Shown here: piece by piece, positions 1,099 to 41,526 of the stretch
Layout of the letters: each line of letters begins with the position of its first letter
How positions within the stretch are numbered: position 1 is the first letter of the stretch
Assembly: GCA_963842585.1 (NCBI GenBank)
Contig: CAWJHG010000005.1
Span: forward strand, 285,652-349,651
Length of the DNA stretch: 64,000 nt
From: Candidatus Acidiferrales bacterium
Lineage (GTDB): Bacteria; Acidobacteriota; Terriglobia; Acidiferrales; UBA7541
Direction: 5' to 3'
The notes under the pieces: generated by a model
Database searches by the model: none
Told to the model about the DNA's origin: nothing
Seen by the model: only the letters and a program-made list of their open reading frames with translations
Program-made: the position numbers and the translations under genes

Positions 1099-3141
1099 AT
1101 GGCGTCGTTCGCACGAGTAGGAGAGCAACTTCCGGTCGCGCCAGCGCCCGCCCCATGGCGCCAGGAGAACTGGGCCGAGCGGGTCGAAACGGCCGTCAAG
1201 AACGGCGCGGAGTACCTGCTTTCGATTCAGTCCGAAGAGGGGTATTGGCACGGTGAACTCGAAGCCGATACCACGCTTGAATCGGATTACATTTACTACC
1301 TCTATGTTCTCGGCAAGGCCGAGCCGGACCGCATCGTCAAACTTGCCAATTATGTGCGCCGGAAACAGATGGAAGATGGCGGCTGGCCGATCTATCCCGG
1401 TGGACCATCCGAACTGAATGCAACGACCAAAGCCTACTTCGCCCTCAAATTGGCGGGTGATTCCGCGGACGCGCCGCACATGGTCAAAGCGCGGGAAATC
1501 GTGCACCGGCTTGGCGGGCTCGAACAGACCAACTCCTACGTGAGGTTCTATCTGGCGCTGGTTGGAGCCGTCGGCTGGGAACTGGTGCCCGCCATTCCGC
1601 CGGAGTTGATGCTCCTGCCGAACTGGTTCTATTTCAACATTTACGAGATGTCCTCCTGGACGCGCGGAATCGTGATCCCCATGGCCATTCTCTCCTCGTT
1701 ACGGCCGGACTTTCGCCTGCCCGAGCACGCCCGAGTCGACGAACTGTTCAAGGATTCCTCGCAAAAAGCTGCAGCGTTCCATTGGAGCAAGCAGTTCCTG
1801 TCCTGGAAGAATGTTTTCCTGGCCGTCGATCGCGGGCTGAAACTGTATGAGAAGCTGCCGTGGAAACCGCTCCGGCAGAAGGCCATCCGCGAAGCGAAGC
1901 AATGGATGGTCGAACATCTGGAGCGGACCGAGGGACTGGCCGCCATCTATCCCTCGATGATGAATTCCATCTTTGCGTTGATCGCCCTCGGTCACGGGCC
2001 GGATGACCCGCTGACGTCACGCGAAATCAAGGAGTTTTCCAGGTTCGAAATCGAAGAAGGCGACACTATTCGCCTGCAACCGTGTGTTTCACCGGTGTGG
2101 GATACCTGCATTGCCATGGTGGCGCTCGAAGAAGCGGGATTGCCGGCCGACGACCCTGCGCTCGTCAAGGCCGCGGACTGGCTGTTGTCAAAGCAGATCT
2201 TGGGCGGAGGCGACTGGCAGATCAAGAACAAGGATGCGGAACCGGGCGGCTGGGCGTTTGAATTCCGGAACGATTTTTACCCGGACGTGGATGACACCGC
2301 TTTCGTGCTCATGGCGCTCGAGCGGGTGAAATTCCCGGACGAGAAACGCATGGAAGGCGCGATGCGCCGGGGCCTGCAATGGCTGCTCAGCATGCAGAAC
2401 CGCGACGGAGGATGGGGAGCGTTCGACCGCGACAATGACCGGCAACTGCTGTGCAACATTCCGTTCGCAGATCATAACGCGATGATCGATCCATCGACGG
2501 CGGACGTGACGGCGCGGGTTCTTGAGTGTCTTGGCCGATTCGGCTGGCCCGCAAAGCACCCGGTGGTTCAGAAAGCCGTGGGCTTCCTGACCAAGGATCA
2601 GAGCAAGGATGGATCCTGGTTCGGACGCTGGGGCGTGAATTACGTTTATGGCACGAGCGGCGTGTTGCGCGCGCTCGAGACGGTTTCGATGACCGCGCAG
2701 GATTATTGCCTGCGTGCGGTCAACTGGCTGCGCCAGGTGCAGAAGGCCGACGGAAGCTTTGGCGAATCGCTGAACAGTTATGAAGTGGTATCGAGCAAGG
2801 GGCAGGGGAACAGTACGCCTTCGCAAACAGCGTGGGGTCTGATCGGACTGCTGGCCGGCGCCAACCCCGATGATCCGGCGATTGCCCGCGCGGCGGCGTA
2901 CCTGGTCACCCAGCAGCACGCCAATGGATCCTGGAGCGAGGAAGATTTTACGGGCACCGGCTTCCCGGGCGTGTTTTACCTGAAGTATCACCTGTATAAG
3001 AATTCCTTCCCGGTCTATGCGCTGGCGCGCTACCGGAATCAAGGACAGCGGGCCGGCGATTACTGCGCCGTAAAGTTTAATCCGAGCGACTTTCGCCTGC
3101 GCAGCGGCTTGTACACTGCACGCGAACGGCGCGTTTCCTAA
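1099..3141 (+). CDS. shc: squalene-hopene cyclase
   Basis: 680 aa. Catalytic DxDDTA motif (DFYPDVDDTAFVLMAL) and repeated QW motifs (e.g. LLSMQNRDGGWGAF, LRQVQKADGSFGES). RBS GGGGAG precedes the ATG. Confidence 0.95.
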   Translation: MASFARVGEQLPVAPAPAPWRQENWAERVETAVKNGAEYLLSIQSEEGYWHGELEADTTLESDYIYYLYVLGKAEPDRIVKLANYVRRKQMEDGGWPIYPGGPSELNATTKAYFALKLAGDSADAPHMVKAREIVHRLGGLEQTNSYVRFYLALVGAVGWELVPAIPPELMLLPNWFYFNIYEMSSWTRGIVIPMAILSSLRPDFRLPEHARVDELFKDSSQKAAAFHWSKQFLSWKNVFLAVDRGLKLYEKLPWKPLRQKAIREAKQWMVEHLERTEGLAAIYPSMMNSIFALIALGHGPDDPLTSREIKEFSRFEIEEGDTIRLQPCVSPVWDTCIAMVALEEAGLPADDPALVKAADWLLSKQILGGGDWQIKNKDAEPGGWAFEFRNDFYPDVDDTAFVLMALERVKFPDEKRMEGAMRRGLQWLLSMQNRDGGWGAFDRDNDRQLLCNIPFADHNAMIDPSTADVTARVLECLGRFGWPAKHPVVQKAVGFLTKDQSKDGSWFGRWGVNYVYGTSGVLRALETVSMTAQDYCLRAVNWLRQVQKADGSFGESLNSYEVVSSKGQGNSTPSQTAWGLIGLLAGANPDDPAIARAAAYLVTQQHANGSWSEEDFTGTGFPGVFYLKYHLYKNSFPVYALARYRNQGQRAGDYCAVKFNPSDFRLRSGLYTARERRVS

Positions 3142-3149
3142 GTATCCCG

Positions 3150-4184
3150 ATGCGGTACCCTTTCGGGCTGGTTTTCGATTCCACAAAACATCTTCTGGCG
3201 GGAAAACTGCGCGGCGAGCGCAGGTTTCCGGTGATTCTCTCGCTCGACCCGCTGGGCGGCCCGTCCGGTCCTGGAGCGAACGGCACTGGGGAGGGATCCG
3301 CAACAGAGCGGACCATGCTGACCGTCGAACAATGCCTGGCAGCGATCGAAGAGTGCCCCACGCCGGTGGTTACCCTGGGCGGTCCGGAGCCGCTCGAATA
3401 TCCGGAAATTGCGGCGCTGACCCGGGCGATCCTGGATCGCGGCCACCACCTGTTCCTCTCTACCGACGGAACCCGGATCCGGCGCTGGCTGCACATGATT
3501 CCTCCGTACACGAATTTCTTCTGGAACGTGAAACTGGACGGAACCGAGTCCGTGCATGACGGGCGCTCCGGCCGTCCCGGACTTTTCATCGAAGCTTGGG
3601 ACGGCATCAAGGCGGCCAAGAACGCCGGTTTTTTTGTGGTGGTGACCAGCACGATCTATCCGGACACGGACATCAACGACCTGGTCGCTCTCTATGAAAA
3701 ACTGCACGCGCTGCACGTGGATGGATACCTACTGTCGCCCCACTATCCCGAGCAGAAATTATGCCGGGACGGCAGCGCAAGGTTTCATGAGAAGATGCAT
3801 CAAAGATTCCGCGAGGCGAGCGACCGGCTGGCCGATTACAATCTGATGCTCTCTCCGGTTTACCTCGAGTATCTGCGCGGCGAGCGCGAACTGGACTGCA
3901 GCGCCTGGGCCGGGCCGGTGTACGGGCCCGCGGGATGGTCGGGTCCGTGCTCCCAGCTGCATATCAACCACGCGAAAAGCTATAAAGCGCTGCTCGAGCA
4001 GACGGTTTGGGAAAACTACGGCCGGGGTCTGAATCCGCGCTGCGAGAATTGCCAGTGCCACGCGGGTTATGAAACGGCGGCGCTGCTCGGCATGAACCCC
4101 AAGGCCGGCGACATCTGGAAAATGCTCGCCTGGCAGCTCGGCGGCAGCCTGGGCGAGAAGAAGGAAGGGAAACACCCTCGATGA
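3150..4184 (+). CDS. HpnH-like protein (adenosylhopane-synthase family) lacking the radical-SAM CxxxCxxC motif
   Basis: 344 aa, collinear with HpnH: KLRGERRFPVIL.L.PL, LTVEQCLAAIEECPTPVV, FFWNVKLDG...HD, GYLLSPHY, C-terminal RCENCQCHAGYE. The segment where HpnH has FRCNLACxGCGKI reads GGPSGPGANGTGEGSATER. There is no TGC/TGT in any frame there. Confidence 0.85.
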   Translation: MRYPFGLVFDSTKHLLAGKLRGERRFPVILSLDPLGGPSGPGANGTGEGSATERTMLTVEQCLAAIEECPTPVVTLGGPEPLEYPEIAALTRAILDRGHHLFLSTDGTRIRRWLHMIPPYTNFFWNVKLDGTESVHDGRSGRPGLFIEAWDGIKAAKNAGFFVVVTSTIYPDTDINDLVALYEKLHALHVDGYLLSPHYPEQKLCRDGSARFHEKMHQRFREASDRLADYNLMLSPVYLEYLRGERELDCSAWAGPVYGPAGWSGPCSQLHINHAKSYKALLEQTVWENYGRGLNPRCENCQCHAGYETAALLGMNPKAGDIWKMLAWQLGGSLGEKKEGKHPR

Positions 4185-5197
4185 CAACACTGGTCACGGG
4201 TGCGGCGGGATTTCTCGGGAGCCACGTGGCGCGCCAACTGGTCGCGCGAGGGGAGAGCGTCCGCGTGCTGATGCGGCCATCGAGCAATAACCGCGCGATC
4301 AGTGATTTGCCGCTCGAATATGTGACCGGAGACCTGCGGGATCTGGCGTCGCTCGCTCGGGCCATGATCGGCATGAAGCGGGTGTTTCACGTCGCAGCAG
4401 ATTACCGTTTGTGGGCCAAGAATCCGCAGGATATCTACGATTCGAATGTGGGTGGAACCCGGAATCTGCTGGCGGCAGCCAAGCAGGCGGGAATCGGGCA
4501 GCTGGTCTATACCAGCACTGTTGCGACCATTGCCGTCGACCGGCCGGAACTTCCAAATGAATCCACCCGGACCACACTCGAAGAGATGATCGGTCATTAC
4601 AAACGATCGAAGTGGATGGCAGAACAGGAAGTGTTGAAGGCGGCCGCGGAAGGATTTCCCGCCATTGTGGCGATGCCGACGACTCCTGTGGGCCCGTGGG
4701 ACTGGAAACCCACGCCGACCGGGAAGATCATCCTGGATTTTCTGAACGGAAAGATGCCGGGGTACGTGGAGACGGGATTGAATTTTGTCGGTGTGGAAGA
4801 GTGTGCTGCCGGACACCTGCTGGTTGCAGAGCGGGGAAAAACGGGGGAGCGGTATTTGCTCGGGGCGGAGAATCTGACGCTCAAGGGTCTGCTGGACGTG
4901 CTGGCCGGGATTACCGGCCTGCCGGCGCCCCGGATGAAAATCCCGCACGGCCTGGCATTGGGTGTAGCGTATGTGGAGAGCGCGTTGTCGCGGATGCTCG
5001 GGAAGGAACCACAGATTCCGGTCGAAGGCGTGAAGATCGCCGAGCACAAGATGTTTGTGGATGCGTCGCGGGCGGTGCGGGAGTTGGGATTTCAGCCCGG
5101 ATCGGTGACCGCGGCGCTCGAACGTGCGGTCGGCTGGTACAGGGCGAACGGGTATGTTTCCCGACGGCGGGCGAAGCGGATGAAGCTCGCGGCGTGA
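4181..5197 (+). CDS. hpnA: hopanoid-associated NAD-dependent sugar epimerase/dehydratase family protein
   Basis: 338 aa. N-terminal Rossmann motif TGAAGFLGSHV and YxxxK (HYKRSK). ATGA overlap with the upstream gene. Position inside the hopanoid operon. Confidence 0.85.
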   Translation: MTTLVTGAAGFLGSHVARQLVARGESVRVLMRPSSNNRAISDLPLEYVTGDLRDLASLARAMIGMKRVFHVAADYRLWAKNPQDIYDSNVGGTRNLLAAAKQAGIGQLVYTSTVATIAVDRPELPNESTRTTLEEMIGHYKRSKWMAEQEVLKAAAEGFPAIVAMPTTPVGPWDWKPTPTGKIILDFLNGKMPGYVETGLNFVGVEECAAGHLLVAERGKTGERYLLGAENLTLKGLLDVLAGITGLPAPRMKIPHGLALGVAYVESALSRMLGKEPQIPVEGVKIAEHKMFVDASRAVRELGFQPGSVTAALERAVGWYRANGYVSRRRAKRMKLAA

Positions 5198-5220: not shown

Positions 5221-5997
5221 ATGAGAGTGCTGGTCACCTTTGCGGTACAAGCGGAGTTTGCGTCGTGGCGCAAACTTCGCCCGTTTCGCGCGAGAACATG
5301 GAATCCGTCGCCAGCACGCGGAGCAGTCCAGGTCCAGGAAGCGGAAATCGGGGCTCACACGGTCTGCATTTACCTGACCGGTATGGGCAGCAAGGGTCTC
5401 GGCGTTCCGGTCGGAATGGATGCGAAAGCGATCGGGGTTGACCTGGTTCTTTCTTCGGGGCTGGCGGGATCACTCAATCCGAAGTATGGGCCGCTGACCG
5501 TTGTTGCGCCGCGGCACGTCGGAACGATGGGAGATTCGCCGGGACTGACTGTCTCGAAGAGTCTGCTCGAACTTGCCGGCAAGCAGGGGGCCACGGTCGT
5601 TGACGGACTGCTCAGTTCCGACCGAATCATCGATACCGCGGAGGAGAAAAAACGACTTTCTCCCTTTGCGGATATTGTGGACATGGAGTCCTTTCATGTG
5701 GTTCGCGAGTTTGTAAACCAGCAAACTCCCGTCGTCGTGATCCGGGCCATCAGTGATGGCAGTGAGGAAGAGTTGCCGGTAGATTTTGAAAAATGCCTTT
5801 CCGCCGAAGGATCCATCAAGGTGGTTCCTCTCCTAAAGGACCTGGCCAGGCGGCCCGGCAAAATTCCTGCCCTGATCCGGTTCGGCAAGCAAAGCAGGGA
5901 AGCGGCGGAGAAACTGACAGGATTTCTGGACGAGTATATTCAGTCGCTCCGGGTGGAAGTGCTGAACGACCGGGTGATGGAGGCCGTGAACGAATGA
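5221..5997 (+). CDS. hpnG: hopanoid-associated nucleosidase/phosphorylase (PNP_UDP_1 family)
   Basis: In-frame ATG at 5221 after AGGGGA. The longer track ORF from 4612 overlaps hpnA. Motifs SSGLAGSL, VDMES and IRAISDG are typical of MTA/SAH-nucleosidase-like HpnG. Operon context supports the call. Confidence 0.7.
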   Translation: MRVLVTFAVQAEFASWRKLRPFRARTWNPSPARGAVQVQEAEIGAHTVCIYLTGMGSKGLGVPVGMDAKAIGVDLVLSSGLAGSLNPKYGPLTVVAPRHVGTMGDSPGLTVSKSLLELAGKQGATVVDGLLSSDRIIDTAEEKKRLSPFADIVDMESFHVVREFVNQQTPVVVIRAISDGSEEELPVDFEKCLSAEGSIKVVPLLKDLARRPGKIPALIRFGKQSREAAEKLTGFLDEYIQSLRVEVLNDRVMEAVNE

Positions 5998-7100
5998 GCG
6001 GAACGGGGACGATGGTCGAGGGGCAGAGGACAGGGGGCGCGCTACCGAGGAAGATGCGGGCGGGGGTGTATCGCGATAAAGGGGTGGTGCGGGTGGAAGA
6101 GGTGCCGGTGCCGGAAGTGGGCGATCGGGAAGTGCTGATCAAGGTGGCAGCCTGCGGGATTTGCGGGACGGACATCAAGAAGATCTACCAGCGTTACGTC
6201 GAGCCGCCGCAGATTTTGGGGCATGAGCTGGCCGGGACCGTCGTGGCCACCGGCAAGGGCGTCACCCGGTGGAAGCTGGGTGACCGGGTCATGAGCTTCC
6301 ACCATATTCCGTGCGGCGATTGTTTCTTCTGCAAGAACCGGCTGTTCTCCCAGTGCCCGCAGTACAAGAACACCGGTCTGACCGGAGGATTCACGCCGAA
6401 TGGGGGCGGATTTGCCGAGTACGTAAAGGCCATGCCATGGGTCGCCGAGCGCGGGATTGTCGCGTTGCCCGACACTGTGGGTTTTGAGGAAGCCACGTTT
6501 ATTGAACCGATCAACACCATCGTGAAGGCCGTCCAAAAAGCCCGGGTGGCGGCGGGGGAGACGGTGCTGGTGGTGGGGTGCGGCCCCATCGGATTGCAAT
6601 TGTTGATGGTTACCAAAACGGTGGGTGCGCGCATCTATACCAGTGACCCTATGGCCACCCGGCGTAGGAAGAGTCTGGAGTTGGGAGCGGTAGAGTCATT
6701 TGACCCCATAAGTGGTAAGCTACTGGAAGAAGTACGCACGCGGACGGGGGGTCGTGGGGCAGATGCGGTCTTGGTGGCGGTGGCGCATCCGGCAGTCGTA
6801 GCGGAAGCGTTGGCGGCGGCCAGGCCCGGCGGTAGAGTTCTTCTTTTTGCTGCAAACGACCCAGTGACAAAAATAGAGTTTCCAGCGGCTGCAGTAGGCA
6901 TTGACGAGAAGGAGATCCTGGGCAGCTACAGTGCGGCCGTGGACATCCAAGAAAGTGCGGCAGCACTGGTGCTAGAGAAGAAACTGCCGGTGATGGAGAT
7001 TGTCACGCACCGGTTTCCATTGGCTAGAATCCAAGAAGGGTTGGACCTGGCAGCCAGGCCCACCGAGGAATCGCTGAAGATCCTGATTACGCACGAATGA
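5994..7100 (+). CDS. zinc-dependent medium-chain dehydrogenase/reductase (sorbitol/threonine dehydrogenase-like), copy 1
   Basis: CGICGTD and GHELAGTVVATGKGV (catalytic Zn), CGDCFFCKNRLFSQC (structural Zn), GCGPIGL (NAD). The ATG overlaps the hpnG stop (ATGA 5994-5997). The start could also be 6012 or 6054. Confidence 0.85.
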   Translation: MSGTGTMVEGQRTGGALPRKMRAGVYRDKGVVRVEEVPVPEVGDREVLIKVAACGICGTDIKKIYQRYVEPPQILGHELAGTVVATGKGVTRWKLGDRVMSFHHIPCGDCFFCKNRLFSQCPQYKNTGLTGGFTPNGGGFAEYVKAMPWVAERGIVALPDTVGFEEATFIEPINTIVKAVQKARVAAGETVLVVGCGPIGLQLLMVTKTVGARIYTSDPMATRRRKSLELGAVESFDPISGKLLEEVRTRTGGRGADAVLVAVAHPAVVAEALAAARPGGRVLLFAANDPVTKIEFPAAAVGIDEKEILGSYSAAVDIQESAAALVLEKKLPVMEIVTHRFPLARIQEGLDLAARPTEESLKILITHE

Positions 7101-8212
7101 AAGCAGCGTCCACAAAAAAGACGGAACTAGGGCTGGAAGAAGTGCTGGTTCCAGCCAAGATAGTCGTGCCGTCGAAAATGACCGCGGCCGTGCTCTACGG
7201 CAGCGAAGATCTCCGGATCGAGAAAATTGAAGTACCCGCTCTGGCCGCCGATGAAGTCTTGCTGCGCGTGCGACTGGCGCTGACCGACGGGACCGACCTG
7301 AAGGTCTGGAAGCGCGGTTACCACGCCAAGATGATTCAGCCACCGGCGGTATTCGGGCACGAGGTGGTTGGCGAAATCGTGGCCATGGGAAAGCGAGTGG
7401 ATTCGAGATGGCGACTGGGCACGCGGGTCATTGCGGCGAATTCCGCTCCCTGCTTCCGCTGCTACCATTGCCGTCGCGGACAAGAGAATCTCTGCGACGA
7501 CCTGCTCTTTAACAATGGCGCCTACGCGGAGTACATGCGGATTCCCGGGCGCATTGTCCGCGAGAACATGCTTGAAGTTCCGTATTCGGTCGACGACCAC
7601 AGCGCGGCCTTTGTGGAGCCGCTGGCCTGCGTCATGCGCGGCATTCATGAGATGGACGTGCGCATGGGCGATACCACGGCAGTGATTGGCTGCGGACCGA
7701 TCGGGTTGAAATACGTGCGCATGCTGTCGCGCCGGGGAGTGCGCGTGATCGCCCTCGCGAGACGCGAGGGGCCGTTGTCGGTAGCGCGGAAACTGGGCGC
7801 AGCCGTAACCATCAACGTCACCGAAGTTCCGGACGTGGTGGCGGCGGTCCGAGAACTGACGGAAGAACGACGCGGACCGGACTCGGTCGTAGAAGCCGCA
7901 GGGAATCCGGCGACCTGGGAGCAGGCGCTGAAGATGGTCTGTCGAGGCGGCGTGGTGAATTTCTTCAGTGGGCTGCCGACCGGGACGCGAGTCGAAATCG
8001 AACCGGCCGCCATTCATTACTCCGAGATCAAGATGATTTCGCCCTTTCACCACACCCCGCGGTTTATCCGTGAAGCGCTCGAGGCAGTCCGGCGCGGTGA
8101 CGTTTCCGCCGAGGAATTTGTCACCGAAGAGATTCGATTGGAAGATTTGCCACAAGCCTTTGAGCGGATGAAGGCACGCAGCGGAGAGATCAAGCTGGCC
8201 GTGCGGCCGTGA
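7097..8212 (+). CDS. zinc-dependent medium-chain dehydrogenase/reductase, copy 2
   Basis: GHEVVGEIVAMGKRV, CFRCYHCRRGQENLC and GCGPIGL. ATGA overlap with the preceding dehydrogenase (7097-7100). Confidence 0.85.
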   Translation: MKAASTKKTELGLEEVLVPAKIVVPSKMTAAVLYGSEDLRIEKIEVPALAADEVLLRVRLALTDGTDLKVWKRGYHAKMIQPPAVFGHEVVGEIVAMGKRVDSRWRLGTRVIAANSAPCFRCYHCRRGQENLCDDLLFNNGAYAEYMRIPGRIVRENMLEVPYSVDDHSAAFVEPLACVMRGIHEMDVRMGDTTAVIGCGPIGLKYVRMLSRRGVRVIALARREGPLSVARKLGAAVTINVTEVPDVVAAVRELTEERRGPDSVVEAAGNPATWEQALKMVCRGGVVNFFSGLPTGTRVEIEPAAIHYSEIKMISPFHHTPRFIREALEAVRRGDVSAEEFVTEEIRLEDLPQAFERMKARSGEIKLAVRP

Positions 8213-8302: not shown

Positions 8303-10249
8303 ATGCTGCGTCCCGGCGAGCTGTCGCTGATGGAGAAATTGCCTCGAAACGGCTGTAGCCCGCAGGCCGCCGAGCAGTACACCCGCTGGCTGGCAACCCA
8401 TCACTACGAAAATTTCAACGTGGTTTCCTGGCTGTTGCCAAAGGATCTGCACCAGCATTTTTACAACGTGTATTCCTATTGCCGGTGGGCGGATGATCTG
8501 GGCGATGAAATCCCGGGGAAGGATCGCGCGCTCGAGTTGCTGGCCTGGTGGGAGACGGAGTTGGACGCCTGCTATGAAGGCCGGCCTTCGCATCCTGTGT
8601 TTGTGGCACTCCGGGAGACGGTGGTGGCCAAGGACGTGCCGAAGCAGCCGTTTGCTGATTTGCTGAAGGCTTTCCGGCAGGACCAGACGGTAGGCCGCTA
8701 CCCGACCTGGGACGCGGTCCTCGATTATTGTGTGTATTCGGCCAATCCCGTAGGCAGGTTGGTCTTGTATCTCTGCGGTTACCGGGATGAGCGGCGGCAG
8801 CGGCTTTCTGACCACACCTGCACGGCCCTGCAACTGGCGAACTTCTGGCAAGACGTTTCGCGGGACCTCGAAAAGGGAAGGATCTACATCCCGCTCGATC
8901 GAGCGGCGGCGCACGGGCTCTCCGAGCAGGACCTGGTCGGGAAGATCTTCGACCAGCGGTACGTTTCGCTGATGAAGGAACTTATCGACTCCACCCGCGG
9001 GCTTTTTCGCCAGGGCATGCCGCTGGCAAAGATGGTGGAGGGAAGGCTGAGCGTCGACCTCGCGATGTTCAGCCGGGGCGGAATGGCCGTTCTCGATGCG
9101 ATTGAGGAGCTCGGCTACGACACCCTGCACGAGCGCCCGGCGGTCGGCAAGGCCAAACAGGTCCGCTTGCTCGGCAGGACCCTGGTTGGACATGTGTTTT
9201 CGGGCGCACCAACGCCGATCAATGAGGCCGTTCGGCACGCTCCGGATGCACCTGGCGAACCAGGCGCGATGGTCAGCGTGGCGGCCTCCTATGAGGAATG
9301 CCACCGGGTGGCCCGGGAGTCGCATAGCAATTTCTATCCCGCTTTTTTTCTGCTTCCGAAGCCCAAACGTGACGGGATTGTGGCCCTCTATGCCTTCATG
9401 CGTTACATCGACGACGTGTCCGATGAGGGCGATGACCTGGCCAGCAAACAACACGGTCTCGCGAAGTGGCGCGCGGCACTGGACCAGGCGATCAATGGGC
9501 AGGATCAGGTGGTGGTGGGTTCGGCGGCCATCGCTTCGCCTTCCCTGAACCTGGACGGTGCAGCGGAGGTTCTGCCCGCGCTGGTCGACACGATTGAGCG
9601 TTACAAGATGCCGCCCCGTTATCTCCACGACCTGATTTCCGGCGCCGAGATGGATCTGACCCTTCAGACTTACCCGTCCTTTGAGCGCCTGAAGGAATAC
9701 TGTTACCGCGTGGCCGGAACGGTGGGGCTGACGTGCACACATATTTTCGGGTTTCGCGATTCGAAGGCACTGGAGCTTGCGGAAAAACTGGGGCTGGCCT
9801 TCCAGTTGACCAATATCATTCGCGACGTGCACGAGGATTTTCGGATCGGCCGCGTCTACCTGCCGGAAGAGGATCTGGCCCACTATCGCGTCACCAGGGA
9901 GGACTTGGGGCGCGAGGAGGCCAGTCTGGGTGTGCGCGAGCTGCTGCGGTTTGAAGCCGATCGCGCCTGGAGACTGTACGAGGAAGGCAGCAAGCTTCTG
10001 GGGCTCGTCGAAGAGGACAGCCGGGGGACGCTGTGGCTGCTGGTGCATACCTACAGCGCGCTGCTCGCGCGCATTGAAAGTGTAAATTTCGCCGTTTTCG
10101 GGGCGCGGGTCCGGCTGACGAAGGCGGAAAAACTGAAGTTGATTGCCAAGGCGCGGTTCGGGCGCCACACGGAAGAGAATATCCTTGCAAAACGTGATCG
10201 TGATCGGCGGCGGGCTGGCGGGGCTGTCGGCGGGCGTCGCGCTGGCTGA
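8303..10249 (+). CDS. hpnC/hpnD: fused squalene-synthase-like protein: HpnC-like N-terminal domain plus HpnD-like C-terminal domain
   Basis: 648-aa uninterrupted ORF with two SQS/PSY domains. Domain 1 has YSYCRWADDLGDE and NFWQDVSRDLEKGRIYIP. Domain 2 has YAFMRYIDDVSDEG and NIIRDVHEDFRIGRVYLP. The linker around 9180-9290 has no in-frame stop. Confidence 0.85.
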   Translation: MLRPGELSLMEKLPRNGCSPQAAEQYTRWLATHHYENFNVVSWLLPKDLHQHFYNVYSYCRWADDLGDEIPGKDRALELLAWWETELDACYEGRPSHPVFVALRETVVAKDVPKQPFADLLKAFRQDQTVGRYPTWDAVLDYCVYSANPVGRLVLYLCGYRDERRQRLSDHTCTALQLANFWQDVSRDLEKGRIYIPLDRAAAHGLSEQDLVGKIFDQRYVSLMKELIDSTRGLFRQGMPLAKMVEGRLSVDLAMFSRGGMAVLDAIEELGYDTLHERPAVGKAKQVRLLGRTLVGHVFSGAPTPINEAVRHAPDAPGEPGAMVSVAASYEECHRVARESHSNFYPAFFLLPKPKRDGIVALYAFMRYIDDVSDEGDDLASKQHGLAKWRAALDQAINGQDQVVVGSAAIASPSLNLDGAAEVLPALVDTIERYKMPPRYLHDLISGAEMDLTLQTYPSFERLKEYCYRVAGTVGLTCTHIFGFRDSKALELAEKLGLAFQLTNIIRDVHEDFRIGRVYLPEEDLAHYRVTREDLGREEASLGVRELLRFEADRAWRLYEEGSKLLGLVEEDSRGTLWLLVHTYSALLARIESVNFAVFGARVRLTKAEKLKLIAKARFGRHTEENILAKRDRDRRRAGGAVGGRRAG

Positions 10250-11597
10250 AGCCGGCTGGCGTGTGCGCCTGTTCGAGCAGCGGCCCTTTCTCGGCGGCCG
10301 GGCAACGTCGTACGTGTTGCCGGACGGCGAGCATGTGGACAACTGCCAGCACGTGACGCTCGGGTGCTGCACGAACCTCGAAGATTTTTACCGGCGCGTC
10401 GGAGCACAGGAGAAGATCCGATACTTCGATCGGCTCCTGTTTCAGGACCCCCAAGGCCGCACTGGAATCATGCAGGCCGGCCTGCTGCCGGCCCCGCTGC
10501 ACATGACCGGATCGTTTCTTTCCTTTGCACCGCTCGCGCTGGCCGACAAGAGGTGCATCGCGAGCGCGCTTCTGGATATTTTACGGGGCCGGGGGCACAC
10601 TGCAGATCTGGATACGCCCGGCGGGATTTCCATGCTCGCGTGGCTCAGGAAGCGCAAGCAGACGCCCCGGGCGATTGAGCGGTTTTGGCGCGTGGTGCTG
10701 GTCAGTGCGCTCGACGAAGAGCTGGAGCAGACCGACGCGCGGTTTGGCGTGGATGTGTTCTGGAAGGGGTTTCTCTCAAACCGAACCGGCTACCGCATGG
10801 GTGTGCCGGCCGTGCCGCTCGCCGAACTGTACGACGGTTGCAAGGCAGAGATCGAACGAAGGGGCGGGGAGGTGAATTTGCGTTTGCCGGTGCGGGCGAT
10901 TCACTTCTCGAACGGCGCGGTAGACAGTCTGGAGTTTGATGGCGGACGGCGGGAATCGGCGGAAGCCTATGTGTTCGCGATGCCGCACCAAGCGCTTGCG
11001 GAGTTGCTGCCCGAAGAGATCCAGAAGAGGGAGCCAGCGCTCGCGCATCTCGGGAAGATCCGCGTTTCGCCCATTACCGGTGTGCACTTCTGGTTCGACC
11101 GGGAGGTGATGAAAGAGCCGTTTGTCACACTGCTCGAGACGACCACCCAGTGGATTTTTAATAAAACGGAACTGTATGGCGCGAACAAGAGCGGGGGCAA
11201 CGAAAAGGGGCAATATCTGCAATTGGTGATCAGCGCATCCTATGACCTGTTGCAGAAGCCGCGGCAGGAGATCATCGATCTTTGCCTGGCAGAACTGCGT
11301 CAGGCTCTGCCCCGGATGCGGGAAGCAAGATTGCTCAAAGCCACGGTGATCAAGGAGGCGGCGGCCACATTTTCACCGCAACCGGGAGTGGACCGCTGGC
11401 GTCCAACACAGCAGACCGGTATTGCGAGGATGTTCCTTGCAGGCGATTGGACCCAAACCGGTTGGCCGGCGACGATGGAAGGTGCGGTTCGAAGCGGGTA
11501 TCTGGCCGCCGAGGCGGTGTTACGGGTGGCGGGAACGGCTCGGACGATTTTGCGGCCGGATCTGCCGCCGGATGGTTGGGTCGGGATGTTTGCCTAG
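10185..11597 (+). CDS. hpnE: squalene-associated FAD-dependent desaturase/amine-oxidase family protein
   Basis: Dinucleotide-binding motif VIVIGGGLAGLSAG...FEQRPFLGGRA. The C-terminus FLAGDW...GWPATMEGAVRSG is typical of amine-oxidase/HpnE. The track ORF starts at TTG 10143. TTG 10185 or GTG 10194 (after GGAAGAG) is more likely. The gene overlaps the 3' end of hpnC/D. Confidence 0.85.
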   Translation: MQNVIVIGGGLAGLSAGVALAEAGWRVRLFEQRPFLGGRATSYVLPDGEHVDNCQHVTLGCCTNLEDFYRRVGAQEKIRYFDRLLFQDPQGRTGIMQAGLLPAPLHMTGSFLSFAPLALADKRCIASALLDILRGRGHTADLDTPGGISMLAWLRKRKQTPRAIERFWRVVLVSALDEELEQTDARFGVDVFWKGFLSNRTGYRMGVPAVPLAELYDGCKAEIERRGGEVNLRLPVRAIHFSNGAVDSLEFDGGRRESAEAYVFAMPHQALAELLPEEIQKREPALAHLGKIRVSPITGVHFWFDREVMKEPFVTLLETTTQWIFNKTELYGANKSGGNEKGQYLQLVISASYDLLQKPRQEIIDLCLAELRQALPRMREARLLKATVIKEAAATFSPQPGVDRWRPTQQTGIARMFLAGDWTQTGWPATMEGAVRSGYLAAEAVLRVAGTARTILRPDLPPDGWVGMFA

Positions 11598-14443: not shown

Positions 14444-17032
14444 GTGAGAGTTAAGAAATATCCCCACGGCAATCACTTTGGCAGGGAGTTTGCCTGTTCT
14501 GACTCCGACGAACCGCTTTTGTCGAAAAGTATTGCTTCGCTAAATTTCTGCATTGTGGAGGCTGGATTGGGGAAAGTCAGCACGCATTCGCGCACCGACG
14601 ACGTTTCTCTCTCGGCAACGCTCGGGGAGGAAGTGGATCATAGCCTTCGTTATTTGATCGGGAAAAACCCTGATCGCGCCCTTCCGCAGGATCTTTTTAA
14701 GGCCATGGCTTTCGCACTGCGCCCACGGCTGCTCGCCGGGATGGAGCAGACCGAAAAGCGATACCAGGCCGCGCATTCCAAGCGCATGTACTACCTCTCG
14801 GCGGAATTCCTGATCGGCCAGTCTCTGAAGAATAATCTGTTCAACCTTCGACTGACCCAGGCGGCAATGGATGTCTGCCAGTCCTTCGGTTTTCAGCTGG
14901 CGGAGGTTTTTCAAAGCGAACCCGACGCCAGTCTCGGAAACGGCGGTTTGGGGCGCCTGGCGGCTTGTTTCCTCGAATCGCTCGCCAGTATGGACCTTCC
15001 AGGCTATGGCTACGGGATCAATTACGAGTTCGGGCTGTTCAAGCAGGAAATCCAAAGCGGCAATCAGCAGGAGCGGCCGGATCAATGGCTGCGCGACCCT
15101 TCCCCATGGGAAATTGCTCACGTGGACGAGGCCTGCGTTGTTCCTCTCTACGGCCGCATTGAACACTCCGAGGGCCACGACGGCCGCTACAACCCGATGT
15201 GGGTTGACTGGAGCTTTGTTCTCGGTGTTCCCCATGACATCCCGATCGTCGGGTACCGCGGCCACACGGTGAATAAGCTCCGTTTGTTCTCCGCCCGCGC
15301 TTCAGACGAATTCGACATGCAGGTATTCAATGCCGGGGACTATGTACGGGCAGTCGAAGCGAAAATACAATCGGAAACCATCTCGAAGGTCCTGTATCCA
15401 AACGATTCCTACCCATCCGGCAAGGAGCTCCGGCTGGTCCAGGAATACTTCATGGTGGCCTGCGCGCTGCGCGACATCCTCGGCCAGTTCAGTCGCCAGT
15501 CCTTGGACCTTTCCCTGCTTCCGAAAAAGGTTGCCCTCCAGCTGAACGACACCCATCCGGCGCTCGCGATTGCCGAACTGATGCGTCTCCTGGTGGATGA
15601 ACATTCCTTGCCATGGGAGCGGGCCTGGGACATCACGAGGAAGGTCTGCTCGTTCACCAACCATACGCTCATGCCCGAGGCTCTGGAGAAATGGCCGGTC
15701 GATCTGCTGCAGAAAACACTGCCGCGCCATCTGCAGATCCTCTTCGAGATTAATCACCGGTTTCTTCAAGAAGTGGAGTGTCGGTTTCCTGGCGATGATG
15801 CGAGGAAATCGCGCCTGTCCCTGATCGAGGAGTCCGGTCCACGCCAGGTCCGCATGGCGCATCTGGCCATCGCAGGAAGTCACACCGTGAATGGAGTTGC
15901 CAGACTTCATTCCGAGCTCGTGAAGTCAGATCTGGTGCCGGACTTTTATGCCCTATGGCCAGAGCGTTTCACTAATGTGACCAACGGGGTCACCCATCGG
16001 CGCTGGCTGGCCTGCGGCAATCCTGCCCTGGCGTCCTTTATCACCCGATATGTGGGTTCCGGATGGGAGACCGATTTCCGCCGGGTACGTGAACTTCATG
16101 CGCATGCTTCAGAACCGGAAGCGCAGCGCGATTTTCTGGCCATCAAGCAGGACTGCAAAATGCACCTGGCGAACCTGATCTTGAAAGAGACCCAGATTCT
16201 GGTGGATCCCGAGTCCATGTTCGATGTTCATGTGAAACGCATTCATGAGTACAAGCGCCAACTCTTGAACATTCTCCGCGTGATCCATACCTACAGGGGC
16301 ATCGTTGAGGAAGGCAAGATGCCGCGCGTTCGACGCACCGTCATTTTCGGCGGCAAAGCCGCCCCCGGCTACCACCTGGCCAAACGAATCATCAAGTTAA
16401 TCCACAATGTCGCCACGGTCGTGAACGACGATCCTGCCGTCAAAGGCATGCTGCGGGTCGTCTTCCTTCCGAATTACCGCGTAACGCTGGCAGAAACGAT
16501 CATCCCCGCCGCGGACCTGAGCGAGCAGATCTCGACAGCCGGTACGGAGGCTTCCGGCACCAGTAACATGAAATTCGCGATGAATGGGGCGCTGACCATC
16601 GGCACTCTGGACGGCGCCAATATTGAAATCCGCGAACGGGTTGGGGAAGAGAATTTCTATCTTTTCGGCCTCGATGCGGCGCAGGTGTCTGACCGGCGCA
16701 ATCACCATAATCCGCGGCATCTCTACGAGACCGATCCACTCATCCGGGGGGTCATGGACTATTTGCTCGAGGAGCGATTCTCCGAAGACGAACCCGGAAT
16801 CTTCGATCCGGTCTGTGCCACGCTGCTTGATCATGGCGACCACTACCTTCATTTCGCGGATTTTCACTCCTATCTTGACGCCCAGGAACGTGCGGAGACC
16901 GATTATCTGAATCGCCCGCTCTGGGCGCAGAAGGCGCTCTTCAATATCGCCAATTCCGCGGAATTCTCGAGCGACCACACCATTGGCCAATATGCCAGGC
17001 GAATCTGGCACATCGTCCCCGCACATGAGTGA
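14444..17032 (+). CDS. glgP: glycogen/maltodextrin phosphorylase
   Basis: GT35 hallmarks: GNGGLGRLAACFLES, and the PLP-lysine region EASGTSNMKFAMNGALTIGTLDGANIE. The start is uncertain: GTG 14444, or TTG 14567 after GGAGG. Confidence 0.95.
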   Translation: MRVKKYPHGNHFGREFACSDSDEPLLSKSIASLNFCIVEAGLGKVSTHSRTDDVSLSATLGEEVDHSLRYLIGKNPDRALPQDLFKAMAFALRPRLLAGMEQTEKRYQAAHSKRMYYLSAEFLIGQSLKNNLFNLRLTQAAMDVCQSFGFQLAEVFQSEPDASLGNGGLGRLAACFLESLASMDLPGYGYGINYEFGLFKQEIQSGNQQERPDQWLRDPSPWEIAHVDEACVVPLYGRIEHSEGHDGRYNPMWVDWSFVLGVPHDIPIVGYRGHTVNKLRLFSARASDEFDMQVFNAGDYVRAVEAKIQSETISKVLYPNDSYPSGKELRLVQEYFMVACALRDILGQFSRQSLDLSLLPKKVALQLNDTHPALAIAELMRLLVDEHSLPWERAWDITRKVCSFTNHTLMPEALEKWPVDLLQKTLPRHLQILFEINHRFLQEVECRFPGDDARKSRLSLIEESGPRQVRMAHLAIAGSHTVNGVARLHSELVKSDLVPDFYALWPERFTNVTNGVTHRRWLACGNPALASFITRYVGSGWETDFRRVRELHAHASEPEAQRDFLAIKQDCKMHLANLILKETQILVDPESMFDVHVKRIHEYKRQLLNILRVIHTYRGIVEEGKMPRVRRTVIFGGKAAPGYHLAKRIIKLIHNVATVVNDDPAVKGMLRVVFLPNYRVTLAETIIPAADLSEQISTAGTEASGTSNMKFAMNGALTIGTLDGANIEIRERVGEENFYLFGLDAAQVSDRRNHHNPRHLYETDPLIRGVMDYLLEERFSEDEPGIFDPVCATLLDHGDHYLHFADFHSYLDAQERAETDYLNRPLWAQKALFNIANSAEFSSDHTIGQYARRIWHIVPAHE

Positions 17033-19179
17033 AAGGTAAATCATTGAACCCCTCAGCCCCAATGAGCACTCCGTCTGCGGCCTTGTCCCTGATCTCCGAT
17101 TCTTTCCGAATCCATCCCGGTAGCCCGCTCCCGTTGGGGTCGATGGTGCAGCGCGGGGGAGTGCATTTTGCCGTCGTCTCCGAGAGTGCCACATCGGCCA
17201 CCCTGGTGCTTTTCCATCCGGACGAGGACGAACCGGCGATGGAATTCCCTCTGGATCCGGTCCTTAACCGAACCGGAAATATCTGGCATGCCTTCCTTGA
17301 AGGGCTCGACCCGGGGATTGATTACGGATTTCGGTTTGATCGGTTTCCGAACGAAGCTCCCCAGCGCTTTCGATTTGATCACCGGCGGGTGCTGATCGAT
17401 CCTTATGCCCTGGCGACCAGTCGAAACTGGCGATGGGGAAGGAAGTCGGGAAAGCGCTCGCTGCGTTCCGTCGTCGTCGATAACACCTTCGACTGGGGCC
17501 TGGACCGCGCACTCAACATTCCGCTGGCGAACTCCGTAATCTACGAGGTACATGTCCGCGCTTTCACCCGGCATTGCTCATCGCGCGTCGCTCACCCCGG
17601 TACGTTTGCGGGATTGGCAGAAAAAATTCCATATCTCAAGGAACTGGGAGTCACGGCGGTCGAGCTCATGCCGGTCTGCGAATTCGATGAATCGGAAACC
17701 GACCGGCTGGACCCGCGAACGGGAGAGCCACTCCTCAATCTATGGGGTTATCATCCGCTCTCTTTTTTTGCACCGAACGCCGCCTATTCCGTGGAGGCGA
17801 CCGGACGCAAGGCCATTCACGAACTGAAAGAGATGATCAGGTCTTTCCATGCGGCGGGAATGGAAGTCATTCTCGATGTGGTTTTCAACCATACCGGAGA
17901 AGGGAACCTCAATGGCCCGACGGTCAATTTTCGGGGCATCGACAATCCGACGTACTACATGCTGCAGTCCGGTTCCGGGTCCTATCTTGATTTCACCGGG
18001 TGCGGAAACACGCTGAACTGCTCCCACTCGGTGGTTCGCGAGATGGTCCTCGATGTGCTCAAGCATTGGGTTGCCGAATACCATGTTGATGGATTTCGTT
18101 TTGATCTGGCCTCTGCCCTGGGCCGCGGCCCGAATGGGGAAGTGCTCTCGAACCCGCCGATTCTCGAGCGCATCGTTTCCGATCCCTGCCTCGCTGACGT
18201 CAAACTGATTGCCGAGGCTTGGGACGCGGGCGGACTGTATCAGGTCGGAAATTTCCCGGCATACGGAAGGTGGGCGGAGTGGAACGGAAAGTATCGCGAT
18301 GATGTCCGGCGATTTGTAAAGGGCGATCCCGGCATGGTTCCCCGCCTGGCCGCACGTTTGATGGGCAGCCCTGATCTCTATCAAAACACCGCAAGACAGC
18401 CGTTCCACAGCATCAATTTCGTGACCTGCCATGACGGCTTCACACTCGCTGACCTGGTGTCTTATCAGGAGAAACACAACGAATCGAACGGCGAATCGAA
18501 TCGGGACGGTTGTTCGGATAACCACAGCTGGAACTGCGGGGTGGAAGGTCCGACGGAGGACCCCGCTGTCGACAAACTCCGCGGCCGGCAGATCCGCAAC
18601 ATGGCGGCGCTCTTGCTGCTGTCTCACGGGGTTCCTATGCTCTTGTATGGCGATGAGGTCGGGCGATCGCAAGAAGGGAACAACAACGCTTACTGCCAGG
18701 ACAACGAGTTGACCTGGATGGACTGGGCCTGGGATGAAAAGCAGCAAGACCTTTTCCGCTTCTTCAAGAACCTGATCGCCTTCCGGCGTAAGCACCCGGT
18801 CTTGCGCAGCGAGCAGTTCGGCTCCAATTCGTCGAAACGCCAGCTCAACATGGATTGGCATGGAACCCATCTTTATCAGGCTGACTTTGCTCCCGACTCC
18901 CATTCGCTGGCCCTTCATCTGTACTGGTCGGGCTCACTCTCTCTTGCCGACCATGTCTTCCTGATCGCCAACTCCTTCTGGGGAGAGCTGAGTTTCGAAT
19001 TGCCAAAGATTGACGGATTTGTATGGTCGCGTTTTCTCGATACCGGCCTCGAACCGCCGAACGAGATTTGCGCCCCCGGACAGGAGCTGGCCATTGAAAG
19101 TCAGGTTTCATACTCTGCCGGGCCCCGTTCCGTTGTCGTGCTGATCGGCAATCCGTCGATGAAAGAAAACGGACCATGA
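17029..19179 (+). CDS. glgX: glycogen debranching enzyme (isoamylase-type, GH13)
   Basis: DGFRFDLAS, AEAWD and FVTCHDGFTLADL are GH13 catalytic regions. The N-terminal CBM48-like region is GVHFAVVSESATSATLVLF. GTG 17029 overlaps the glgP stop. An alternative ATG lies at 17062. Confidence 0.9.
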   Translation: MKGKSLNPSAPMSTPSAALSLISDSFRIHPGSPLPLGSMVQRGGVHFAVVSESATSATLVLFHPDEDEPAMEFPLDPVLNRTGNIWHAFLEGLDPGIDYGFRFDRFPNEAPQRFRFDHRRVLIDPYALATSRNWRWGRKSGKRSLRSVVVDNTFDWGLDRALNIPLANSVIYEVHVRAFTRHCSSRVAHPGTFAGLAEKIPYLKELGVTAVELMPVCEFDESETDRLDPRTGEPLLNLWGYHPLSFFAPNAAYSVEATGRKAIHELKEMIRSFHAAGMEVILDVVFNHTGEGNLNGPTVNFRGIDNPTYYMLQSGSGSYLDFTGCGNTLNCSHSVVREMVLDVLKHWVAEYHVDGFRFDLASALGRGPNGEVLSNPPILERIVSDPCLADVKLIAEAWDAGGLYQVGNFPAYGRWAEWNGKYRDDVRRFVKGDPGMVPRLAARLMGSPDLYQNTARQPFHSINFVTCHDGFTLADLVSYQEKHNESNGESNRDGCSDNHSWNCGVEGPTEDPAVDKLRGRQIRNMAALLLLSHGVPMLLYGDEVGRSQEGNNNAYCQDNELTWMDWAWDEKQQDLFRFFKNLIAFRRKHPVLRSEQFGSNSSKRQLNMDWHGTHLYQADFAPDSHSLALHLYWSGSLSLADHVFLIANSFWGELSFELPKIDGFVWSRFLDTGLEPPNEICAPGQELAIESQVSYSAGPRSVVVLIGNPSMKENGP

Positions 19180-20492
19180 AAATACTCCAGACTCCCCACG
19201 CATACGACGCCCAGGCAAAGCTGCTGCAAAGCAGCGAACCGGAGGCGGATGTTGCCTCCCTGTCGCCTAGAGAAACTCCGAAGCCGGAAATCCTTGTCGT
19301 GGATGACAGTCCGGTGCAGCGTGCCCTGCTCGGTCAACTGCTGCGATCCTGCGGACACCCTGTTGTTGAAGCGATCAACGGTGTTGAAGCGCTGAAGCTC
19401 ATCGGGGAGCGAAGAATTCGGATTGTATTTACAGACTGGGTCATGCCGGAAATGACCGGTATCGAACTCATCGAGCGGATCCGCGACGGAAATCTGGGAT
19501 TCTATGTATACGTCATACTCTGCAGCAGCAAGAATTCAAAGACCGACGTCATCGCAGGCATCCGCAAGGGCGCGGACGATTTTCTGACCAAACCTGCGAT
19601 TCCCGAGGAACTGCTGGCCCGACTTCATGCGGGAGAACGGGTCATCGAACTGCAGAACCGGATTGCCAAAGAGGAGGATAAAGTCGCCCAGGCCTATGCC
19701 TCACTTTCGAAAGCGCACAACAAATTGCGATCCGATCTTGATGCCGCCGCGGAGCTGCAGCTCAGCCTGCTCCCCCATCCTGCACTTCTGGACCAAGTTC
19801 AGTTCGACTGGGTGTTCCGGCCTACCAACGAGGTCGCCGGCGACATCTTTAACGTCTTTCCTCTCGACCCGCAGCACATCGGGTTCTATCAACTGGACGT
19901 CTCCGGACACGGAGTCCCCGCTGCGATGCTTTCCTTTTATTTGAGCAAAATCCTTCAGGGCGCTCCGGTGCGCGACTCTTTCTTGAAACGTGCGCTCCGG
20001 GAAGAGCCGTTTTACAAGATCGTGCCGCCGAACGAAGTCGTGAGTGAGCTGAACCGGAAGTTTCAGAACGACGGCGACATGTTTTTCACCATGATTTACG
20101 GGATCCTGAACACCAAGTCGGGGAAGCTCCAATTCACCCAAGCGGGCCATCCGAACCCGATTCTTTCGCGCGCGGATGGTTCGACCGTGCTGATCGGTGG
20201 CACGGGCTTTCCGGTCGGCGCGCTGCCGAACGTGGAATTCGATCTGGTCGAAGAGCAGTTAAATCCCGGGGACCGGCTGATCATTTATTCCGACGGAATC
20301 ACCGAGTGCCGGAATGAGCGCAAGGAACAGTTCGGTTCGGAACGCATGAGGGAATGCGTCGAGAACACTGCGAACCAGCAACTGGAAGAGTTTGTCCGGG
20401 CATTTGTGGGCAAACTGGTCGACTGGCGGGGTCGCGACGAATTTGACGATGATATCTCGTTACTGGCCATGGGGTATACGGCTGCAGGGTGA
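19176..20492 (+). CDS. response-regulator receiver domain fused to PP2C/SpoIIE-family serine phosphatase
   Basis: REC domain: ILVVDDSP...FTDWVMPEMTG...FLTKP. SpoIIE domain: VAGDIFNVFPL...QLDVSGHGVPAAMLS...YSDGITE. The ATG overlaps the glgX stop (ATGA 19176-19179). Confidence 0.9.
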   Translation: MKILQTPHAYDAQAKLLQSSEPEADVASLSPRETPKPEILVVDDSPVQRALLGQLLRSCGHPVVEAINGVEALKLIGERRIRIVFTDWVMPEMTGIELIERIRDGNLGFYVYVILCSSKNSKTDVIAGIRKGADDFLTKPAIPEELLARLHAGERVIELQNRIAKEEDKVAQAYASLSKAHNKLRSDLDAAAELQLSLLPHPALLDQVQFDWVFRPTNEVAGDIFNVFPLDPQHIGFYQLDVSGHGVPAAMLSFYLSKILQGAPVRDSFLKRALREEPFYKIVPPNEVVSELNRKFQNDGDMFFTMIYGILNTKSGKLQFTQAGHPNPILSRADGSTVLIGGTGFPVGALPNVEFDLVEEQLNPGDRLIIYSDGITECRNERKEQFGSERMRECVENTANQQLEEFVRAFVGKLVDWRGRDEFDDDISLLAMGYTAAG

Positions 20493-41193: not shown

Positions 41194-41526
41194 CGCCGGT
41201 CTCCTTTTTTGTGCCTCGAGCACGTCGAACATCGGGAGCTTATCGCATCCCGCTGGAGACCGGCCTTCTCATCCCATCTGTCCTTTAGGGCCGCAGCGGC
41301 CCGCGAAACCTCATGAAAATCACTTCGAGGTAAGATCGAAACGCCAAGAGCGGCGAGGTCGAGTTTATCAGTGGAGAGTTCGAGGCCGTCCATCTGTCTG
41401 ATCCGGAGCGTGCGTGTTTGAGCGAATAATTGGGCGTCGCTGTTTTCCTTAGGGGAACCACCGATAGCCCGTGACCCTGGTTAGAGTAGCTGCAGCACGC
41501 TCTCCACTCCTGGCTAGGAGGAGTCT

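Follow-up and report, generated by a model that had tools for sequence, protein, structure and literature searches.

Radical S-adenosylmethionine (SAM) enzymes require a [4Fe-4S] cluster held by three cysteines for the reductive cleavage of SAM. In the present work, we examine a homolog of one of these enzymes, HpnH, in which the three cysteines are missing. Its gene lies at positions 3150-4184 of the forward strand in a stretch of 64,000 nucleotides (the window) from a Candidatus Acidiferrales bacterium, as part of a hopanoid operon. The loss of the CxxxCxxC motif is real and ancient, is shared by a whole clade, and took place in the ancestral position of the gene. The gene is nonetheless evidently maintained by selection across at least 52 species, and it does not have the character of a pseudogene. 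The interpretation that we favor, to which we assign a probability of about 0.6, is that the protein is a pseudoenzyme that would be unable to cleave SAM and whose role in the hopanoid operon would be non-catalytic.

The open reading frame (ORF) encodes a protein of 344 amino acids, referred to below as the Cys-less HpnH. As the original prediction had stated, it is collinear with HpnH from end to end. Against the HpnH profile TIGR03470 it scores 237.3 bits (cutoff 225.05), with residues 1-312 aligned to profile positions 1-316 of 318. The match to the radical-SAM superfamily profile PF04055 amounts to 48.3 bits, compared with a gathering score of 29.5, and begins at residue 55, corresponding to profile position 26, so that the segment with the Cys motif is absent from it. 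The Cys-rich region at the C-terminus is present and matches PF11946 (DUF3463) with 102 bits. This region (3897-4058, forward strand) contains C250, C267, C298 and C301, together with C303 in the stretch RC298ENC301QC303. The first four of these show no variation in either the Cys-less clade or canonical HpnH, and they might coordinate a metal or a cluster at an auxiliary site.

At the cluster site, canonical HpnH has LMLEPLxxCNLxCxGCG[RK]IREY, whereas the Cys-less HpnH reads LSLDPLGGPSGPGANGTGEGSATER. What is left of the cluster-binding loop comprises residues 36-55, GGPSGPGANGTGEGSATERT (3255-3314, forward strand), which align to the canonical HACNLTCTGCGRIREY. The cysteines of the whole protein are found at positions 62, 69, 205, 250, 267, 298, 301 and 303, and nowhere do they have the CxxxCxxC spacing. 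Neither TGC nor TGT occurs between 3245 and 3310, whichever frame is read, the closest being an out-of-frame TGC at 3316. Both the missing motif and the absence of a simple frameshift had been predicted, and both hold. The GGE motif, which interacts with the amino group of SAM, is also degenerate, reading G78-P79-E80 (3381-3389, forward strand). This had been described as a change from GGEP to GGPEP. The motif is indeed altered, but by substitution and not by insertion: where the clade consensus has CGGEPL, or more fully I-C-G-G-E-P-L, the window has L-G-G-P-E-P-L, with Pro in place of the second Gly, and Gly in place of the Cys before the motif. In the clade alignment G78, E80 and P81 are invariant, while position 79, an invariant Gly in canonical HpnH, has this residue in just 67% of the members. 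To judge from these features, the protein cannot hold the canonical SAM-binding cluster, a point on which we are firm. According to radical-SAM enzymology, a protein without this cluster would neither cleave SAM nor add the 5′-deoxyadenosyl radical to diploptene.

It is important to establish that this state is not peculiar to a single assembly. A separate contig encodes a protein (P0001) that is 99% identical and also without the motif; an exact look-up of the window protein in the assembly index gave no entry. Among database homologs, the best 120 (67-99% identity) all lack the motif, as do 52 of 52 loci from a scan with one genome per species, two closed chromosomes (OY969563.1 and OY969770.1) included. 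Nearly all of these 52 loci are labelled Ca. Acidoferrales or Ca. Acidoferrum, Acidoferrales being the NCBI synonym of Ca. Acidiferrales in the class Terriglobia. CxxxCxxC is thus lacking in all 172 clade sequences examined. On the canonical side, CNLxCxGC was found in each of the 80 fetched loci that were examined, and among the matches listed it is kept by all of the approximately 200 other acidobacterial and planctomycete loci sampled. An exhaustive search of representative sequences passes from the clade representative, at 558 bits, straight to canonical HpnH with at most 40% identity, and the full-length canonical representatives bear CNLxCxGC. The check proposed with the original prediction, namely whether Cys-less orthologs form a conserved clade, has therefore a positive answer: the group is monophyletic and none of its 52 genomes has the motif. 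An assembly or sequencing error at 3240-3320 had been named as something that could restore the motif. The identical Cys-less state is, however, seen in independent short-read and long-read assemblies, including the two closed chromosomes, and a TGC or TGT is missing in every frame. A frameshift or assembly error hiding an intact motif can thus be dismissed on the basis of the 120 homologs, the 52 genomes and the DNA itself, and we consider the chance of such an artefact to be practically nil.

Within the clade the window copy is not unusual, since it departs from only 1 of 148 conserved columns, the median for the other members being 2. These score 247-276 bits on TIGR03470, and canonical acidobacterial HpnH 424-431 bits. 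The former cluster loop is 5-44 residues long in the clade and rich in Gly, Ala, Ser and Asn. Of 159 unique loops, 27 are devoid of Cys; one Cys is seen in 70, two in 50 (as CxxxC in 31 of these) and three in 12, and the Cx3Cx2C spacing occurs in none. The loop is a decaying remnant of the cluster site.

A few loci call for comment. Fifty of the 52 genomes have an intact ORF that does not vary in length, and in the other two, both long-read metagenome-assembled genomes (MAGs), it is split by frameshifts (L049, 10001-11061; L051, 10001-11054). The neighboring genes are split as well in L049, which points to an assembly error, while in L051 the split is confined to this gene and may represent a real pseudogene. 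Eight loci (L013, L014, L028, L029, L036, L041, L045 and L047) have the typical Acidoferrum synteny and the Cys-less protein and have been assigned to unrelated taxa (Verrucomicrobiia, Limnocylindrales, Baltobacteraceae, Methylomirabilota, Eisenbacteria, Dongiaceae and Eremiobacteraceae); these are probably mis-binned contigs in SMAG MAGs. One MAG labelled Ca. Acidoferrum sp. (SMAG_U12319, locus L290) has a canonical hpnH beside an shc whose product is 63% identical to that of the window, and the genus label is therefore not a reliable tracker of the Cys-less state.

We now turn our attention to the origin of the gene. In the window, the order is orf-shc-hpnH-hpnA-hpnG-like-adh-adh-hpnCD(fusion)-hpnE, i.e. 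a hopanoid cluster with the Cys-less gene next to that of the squalene-hopene cyclase (Shc). The identical order is found in other Acidobacteria, where the slot is filled by a canonical HpnH of 375-400 amino acids, and the Cys-less and canonical loci also share upstream neighbors (an alpha/beta hydrolase, an ArnT-like glycosyltransferase and an LpxL-like acyltransferase). A neighbor-joining tree of Shc places the Cys-less genomes together in a single clade inside lineages that have canonical HpnH, with L119 as sister, followed by L132 and then by L100 and L123. The tree of HpnH itself shows a monophyletic Cys-less clade subtended by the longest internal branch, 0.206 compared with a median of 0.012. 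The shared slot and the nesting of Shc imply that the ancestor had a normal HpnH here and that the motif was lost in place. The Cys-less HpnH is thus, by this comparison, an ortholog that degenerated where it stood, with no duplication involved.

The loss was accompanied by a marked change of evolutionary rate. The ratio of the HpnH and Shc amino-acid distances is 2.7 in the Cys-less clade, compared with 0.70 in canonical Acidobacteria, a shift of about four-fold; HpnH is thus slower than Shc in the latter and faster in the former. No matching shift is seen for HpnA and the second alcohol dehydrogenase (Adh2). The ratio of nonsynonymous to synonymous substitution rates (dN/dS), calculated by the Nei-Gojobori method (NG86) for pairs with dS < 1.5, is 0.154 for the Cys-less gene (range 0.07-0.25, 363 pairs) and 0.108 for canonical hpnH, which means that selection on the former is weaker yet clearly purifying. 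The corresponding values in Cys-less and canonical genomes are 0.056 vs 0.133 for shc, and 0.080 vs 0.167 for hpnA. Of the 104 columns that are conserved to at least 95% in canonical HpnH, 57 are retained in the clade, 10 have been replaced by another conserved residue and 37 have become variable. The variable positions include the whole segment C38-Y51, C79 and G81 of the GGE region, H130, Y203, Y270, D274 and H276. On the other hand, 164 columns are conserved to at least 90% in the clade, 34 of them with residues that are rare in canonical HpnH. Among the clade-specific residues is the near-invariant Cys205.

An AlphaFold2 (AF2) model built from the clade alignment, with a mean predicted local distance difference test score (pLDDT) of 77 and a predicted template-modeling score (pTM) of 0.81, shows a partial (beta/alpha)6 TIM barrel of six beta/alpha units, and its pLDDT exceeds 90 over approximately residues 57-200. 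The former cluster loop, residues 38-53, has a pLDDT below 50 and is predicted to be disordered, and the Cys-bearing loops at the C-terminus are of low confidence. The best Foldseek neighbors in the PDB are the SPASM/twitch radical-SAM proteins BlsE, SuiB, SkfB, MoaA and anSME, with E values from 8e-10 to 1e-5. By sequence, no solved HpnH structure was found in the PDB, the sole match being BlsE (E=1e-4).

The following scenario would account for these observations. An ancestral HpnH, the adenosylhopane synthase, lost the three cluster cysteines in one Ca. Acidiferrales lineage that includes Ca. Acidoferrum, and SAM cleavage and the adenosylation of diploptene would have been lost with the cluster. 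The protein has kept the N-terminal amphipathic helix, the core of a partial TIM barrel, and the C-terminal domain with its four Cys, and it has acquired the 34 clade-specific conserved residues. At present, it would most likely serve the hopanoid machinery as an adaptor or as a pseudoenzyme subunit, translated together with Shc and HpnA, and it probably still binds hopene, partner proteins, or both. We infer catalytic death from the combination of a clade-wide loss of the triad, a variable loop, an unconserved second Gly in the GGE motif, and a rate increased about four-fold at a dN/dS of 0.15. The scaffold or binding role is a proposal. The original prediction had offered a dead pseudoenzyme or a different chemistry, and of these the comparative evidence backs the former at its core, while the latter stays a minor alternative.

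Four points weigh against this interpretation. The genes for the HpnG-like protein, HpnA and the alcohol dehydrogenases show no relaxation in the Cys-less genomes, which would be unexpected if adenosylhopane were not made there. The conserved C62 and C69 and the clade-specific C205, all outside the C-terminal domain, could conceivably make up a non-canonical site. When the loop is excluded, the positions that lost conservation show no significant enrichment at the barrel top and the C-termini of the strands (Fisher p=0.12). With the cluster loop included the enrichment is significant (p=0.0005), and a focus of the loss at the active-site end of the barrel was therefore not retained, its significance depending on the inclusion of that loop. 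Finally, no canonical hpnH from any of the 52 Cys-less genomes was found among the roughly 200 acidobacterial loci listed, but this negative is sampling evidence from scans tuned to acidobacterial and planctomycete motifs. The scans were made with a planctomycete HpnH as query, with an alignment of canonical acidobacterial HpnH, and with a degenerate pattern of 33 nt for CGRIREYKSTI; the first gave at least 152 confirmed matches, of which 80 were used, and the other two gave at least 600 and at least 120 matches, respectively.

The last point bears on the possibility that the pathway to C35 hopanoids runs with another radical-SAM enzyme, encoded elsewhere and either a canonical HpnH gained by acquisition or duplication or a non-orthologous one, carrying out the adenosylation, and with the Cys-less HpnH as its non-catalytic partner or regulator, in the manner of a prozyme. 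The undiminished constraint on the hpnG-like, hpnA and adh genes would fit well with this, as would the persistence of these genes next to a truncated form of HpnH (see below) and the purifying selection on the Cys-less gene itself. We still consider it unlikely. The Cys-less gene sits in the ancestral slot with no duplication visible, and nearly all listed canonical copies adjoin shc and/or hpnA. In those loci that include shc, the identity of Shc to the window protein does not exceed 77%. No ORF of at least 150 amino acids with CxxxCxxC exists in the 64-kb window, no hpnH paralog lies within 10 kb in any of the 52 loci, and a nearby paralog was accordingly dropped as a candidate. The idea that a canonical hpnH may exist elsewhere in the genome, raised in the original prediction, has thus found no support among the loci listed.

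Another option considered was that the protein is still active and makes adenosylhopane, or modifies hopanoids in another way, by means of a cluster at C62/C69/C205, the four-Cys site at the C-terminus, or non-radical SAM chemistry. Radical-SAM enzymes with non-canonical Cys triads do exist (ThiC, Dph2, HmdB), exactly three further cysteines are conserved in the clade with C205 being specific to it, purifying selection acts on the gene, the barrel is conserved, and hpnG-like has been kept downstream. However, C62 and C69 are also present in canonical HpnH and hence not compensatory, and C62 is missing in two clade members. The second Gly of the GGE motif and many active-site residues that are invariant in canonical HpnH are not conserved, the rate is about four times higher, and related lineages without the C-terminal domain and those cysteines have kept the operon. 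Continued activity of this kind is therefore improbable in our view. We likewise see only a slim chance that the C35 pathway operates with the Cys-less HpnH, alone or with a partner, forming the hopane-adenosyl bond without a CX3CX2C cluster; if true, a reaction for which canonical radical-SAM chemistry is considered necessary would proceed without radicals or with a cofactor architecture of a new type. The opposite case is a functionless relic, decaying after the loss of C35 hopanoid synthesis. The accelerated evolution, the hypervariable loop, the truncated relatives and the frameshifts in L049 and L051 would all be natural for such a gene. This is nevertheless hard to reconcile with a dN/dS of 0.15 over 363 pairs, with an intact ORF of constant length in 50 of 52 genomes, and with 164 columns conserved to at least 90%, clade-specific residues among them; the frameshifts in L049 also affect neighboring genes, as fits long-read assembly errors. 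We regard a relic as very improbable.

The constraint on the downstream genes deserves closer attention. The substrate of HpnG is the product of HpnH (PMC13459092). In the window, the gene in question (5221-5997, forward strand) encodes an HpnG-like phosphorylase or nucleosidase of the PNP/MTAN family with 258 amino acids. It scores 111.5 bits on TIGR03468, under the cutoff of 187; similar scores, 102-126 bits, are obtained for the copies of canonical acidobacterial lineages. The ORF is intact, with the R.ISD motif of the catalytic Asp, in 53 of 53 Cys-less loci, and its dN/dS is 0.120, compared with 0.135 in canonical genomes. Co-degeneration with the Cys-less hpnH can thus be discarded, as profile scores, catalytic motif and dN/dS all have the values of the canonical lineages. 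Such undiminished constraint fits poorly with a simple loss of the side-chain pathway. It could reflect roles of these genes that are independent of HpnH, another source of adenosylhopane, or an unrecognized activity of the Cys-less HpnH, and it makes the source of adenosylhopane in these organisms, if there is one, a puzzle.

The hpnG-like gene is also hypervariable in its own right. Both in the Cys-less loci (L001-L052) and in the canonical ones, it occurs as discrete allele types that are discordant with the species tree. L005 and L011, for example, differ by 1% in Shc and by 62% in the HpnG-like protein, and a similar pattern is seen between the canonical L125 and L130. Within one allele type, dN/dS is about 0.12. 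The pattern suggests allele replacement by recombination.

The degeneration of HpnH goes further in some relatives. A family of HpnH-like proteins of 243-286 amino acids has kept the N-terminal helix and the barrel and has neither the Cys triad nor DUF3463. It has 685 database members at E <= 1e-5, some of which are named Ca. Acidoferrum or Acidiferrales. High-quality MAGs such as GCA_035544995.1 carry the truncated form. In the three loci examined, the gene occupies the same operon slot (L330, 10001-10822; L333, 10001-10801; L335, 10001-10786), and the Shc of such loci is 77-80% identical to that of the window and 80-84% to that of the canonical genome L119. The truncated proteins P0207, P0289, P0322 and P0370 (approximately 261-286 amino acids) resemble the Cys-less HpnH in their slot, in the MRFPLxL helix, in the lack of the triad and in a dN/dS below 1. 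They differ from it in that the whole four-Cys DUF3463 domain is gone, and in that the barrel is only about 36% identical; with 85-127 bits, these proteins stay under the HpnH cutoff. Their dN is about four times that of Shc, with a dN/dS of roughly 0.18-0.33. A tree of the barrel alone unites all degraded forms, a grouping that may be due to long-branch attraction. By these comparisons, HpnH would have degenerated once or several times in the group, and the operon appears to outlast even the extreme form. One protein, P0126 with 315 amino acids, looks like an intermediate form. The canonical, the full-length Cys-less and the truncated Cys-less proteins in one operon slot constitute a graded series, and thereby a natural experiment in which one can ask whether HpnH has a second, non-catalytic role.

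It is useful to compare the Cys-less HpnH with known systems. Canonical HpnH (TIGR03470; radical SAM and DUF3463) is the adenosylhopane synthase, for which PMC13459092 cites Bradley et al. 2010 and Sato et al. 2020. The Cys-less protein shares with it the full-length collinearity, the slot beside shc, the N-terminal helix, the barrel and the four C-terminal cysteines. It differs by the lack of CxxxCxxC, the degraded GGE motif, a score about 190 bits lower than the acidobacterial 424-431, a C-terminus that is about 40-50 residues shorter, and the approximately four-fold higher relative rate. The mechanistic analogue of HpnH is the aminofutalosine synthase MqnE (PMC13459092), a reference for the ancestral chemistry, i.e. 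the addition of the 5′-deoxyadenosyl radical to an olefin; the Cys-less HpnH is without the cluster that this chemistry requires. The proteins closest to the AF2 model, BlsE, SuiB, SkfB, MoaA and anSME, are only 12-18% identical to it and, unlike it, have all kept the CX3CX2C cluster. The concept of a radical-SAM/SPASM-type fold without the Cys triad has a precedent in the family TIGR04347 of Halobacteria, which NCBIfam names "pseudo-SAM/SPASM". The present protein scores only 25.3 bits on that profile (cutoff 525) and comes from another parent family, taxon and genomic context. The literature search, covering Cys-less HpnH, DUF3463 and hopanoids in Acidoferrum, gave no prior description.

These results have consequences for annotation. 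The Cys-less proteins carry the HpnH name at NCBI and JGI, and TIGR03470 is used as a marker for the capacity to make C35 (extended) hopanoids, one that is judged highly reliable (bioRxiv 10.1101/2025.07.29.667474). Since every clade member tested exceeds the TIGR03470 cutoff (237-276 bits) and is named HpnH, the marker cannot safely be used to infer this capacity in the present lineage, which belongs to the uncultured Acidobacteria of soil. If the protein is inactive, predictions of bacteriohopanepolyols would be false positives for a clade that is seen in many soil metagenome assemblies, which bears on the reading of soil hopanoid records.

The other genes of the hopanoid region, all on the forward strand, can be described briefly. 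A conserved hypothetical ORF of 231 amino acids (187-882) lies directly upstream of shc. This ORF has no Pfam or NCBIfam match and always precedes shc in the group, with homologs that occupy this position in Cys-less loci (46-82% identity) and in some canonical loci (48-55%). Next comes shc (1099-3141), with 785.7 bits on TIGR01507 and matches to Pfam SQHop_cyclase_N and SQHop_cyclase_C. The start of hpnA (4181-5197; hopanoid-associated sugar epimerase, TIGR03466, 440 bits) overlaps the stop of the Cys-less hpnH by 4 nt. The hpnG-like gene is followed by two Zn-dependent alcohol dehydrogenases, both with Pfam ADH_N and ADH_zinc_N matches. The first (5994-7100) has 368 amino acids, its start being set by analogy with the gene calls in L330 and L333, and the second (7097-8212) is 87-95% identical among the Cys-less loci. 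This strongly conserved tandem (5994-8212) inside a hopanoid operon might, speculatively, provide the reduction of ribosylhopane to bacteriohopanetetrol. The hpnC-hpnD fusion (8303-10249; squalene synthase/presqualene diphosphate synthase) matches TIGR03464 with 517 bits on residues 31-294 and TIGR03465 with 418 bits on residues 337-618. This fusion of 648 amino acids is kept in most Cys-less and canonical acidobacterial loci, and is split in some long-read assemblies. It is followed by hpnE (10143-11597; hydroxysqualene dehydroxylase, TIGR03467, 460.7 bits), the start codon of which is uncertain.

In related loci, genes of the lipid A type adjoin the operon upstream (L011, 1-7700; L123, 3400-7800; also L330, L333 and L335), encoding an LpxL-like acyltransferase and an ArnT/PMT_2-like glycosyltransferase. 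LpxD is likewise found upstream in the loci with degraded HpnH that were checked, and is absent in L123, the sole canonical locus checked. Directly downstream of the hopanoid region, at 14444-20492 of the window, there are genes for a glycogen phosphorylase, a GlgX debranching enzyme and a response-regulator/PP2C-type phosphatase. Further along, the window contains two divergent transposase genes of the IS110 family (40093-41232, reverse strand; 41527-42816, forward strand) and a LigD-Ku pair for non-homologous end joining (47495-50149, reverse strand; 50222-51190, forward strand).

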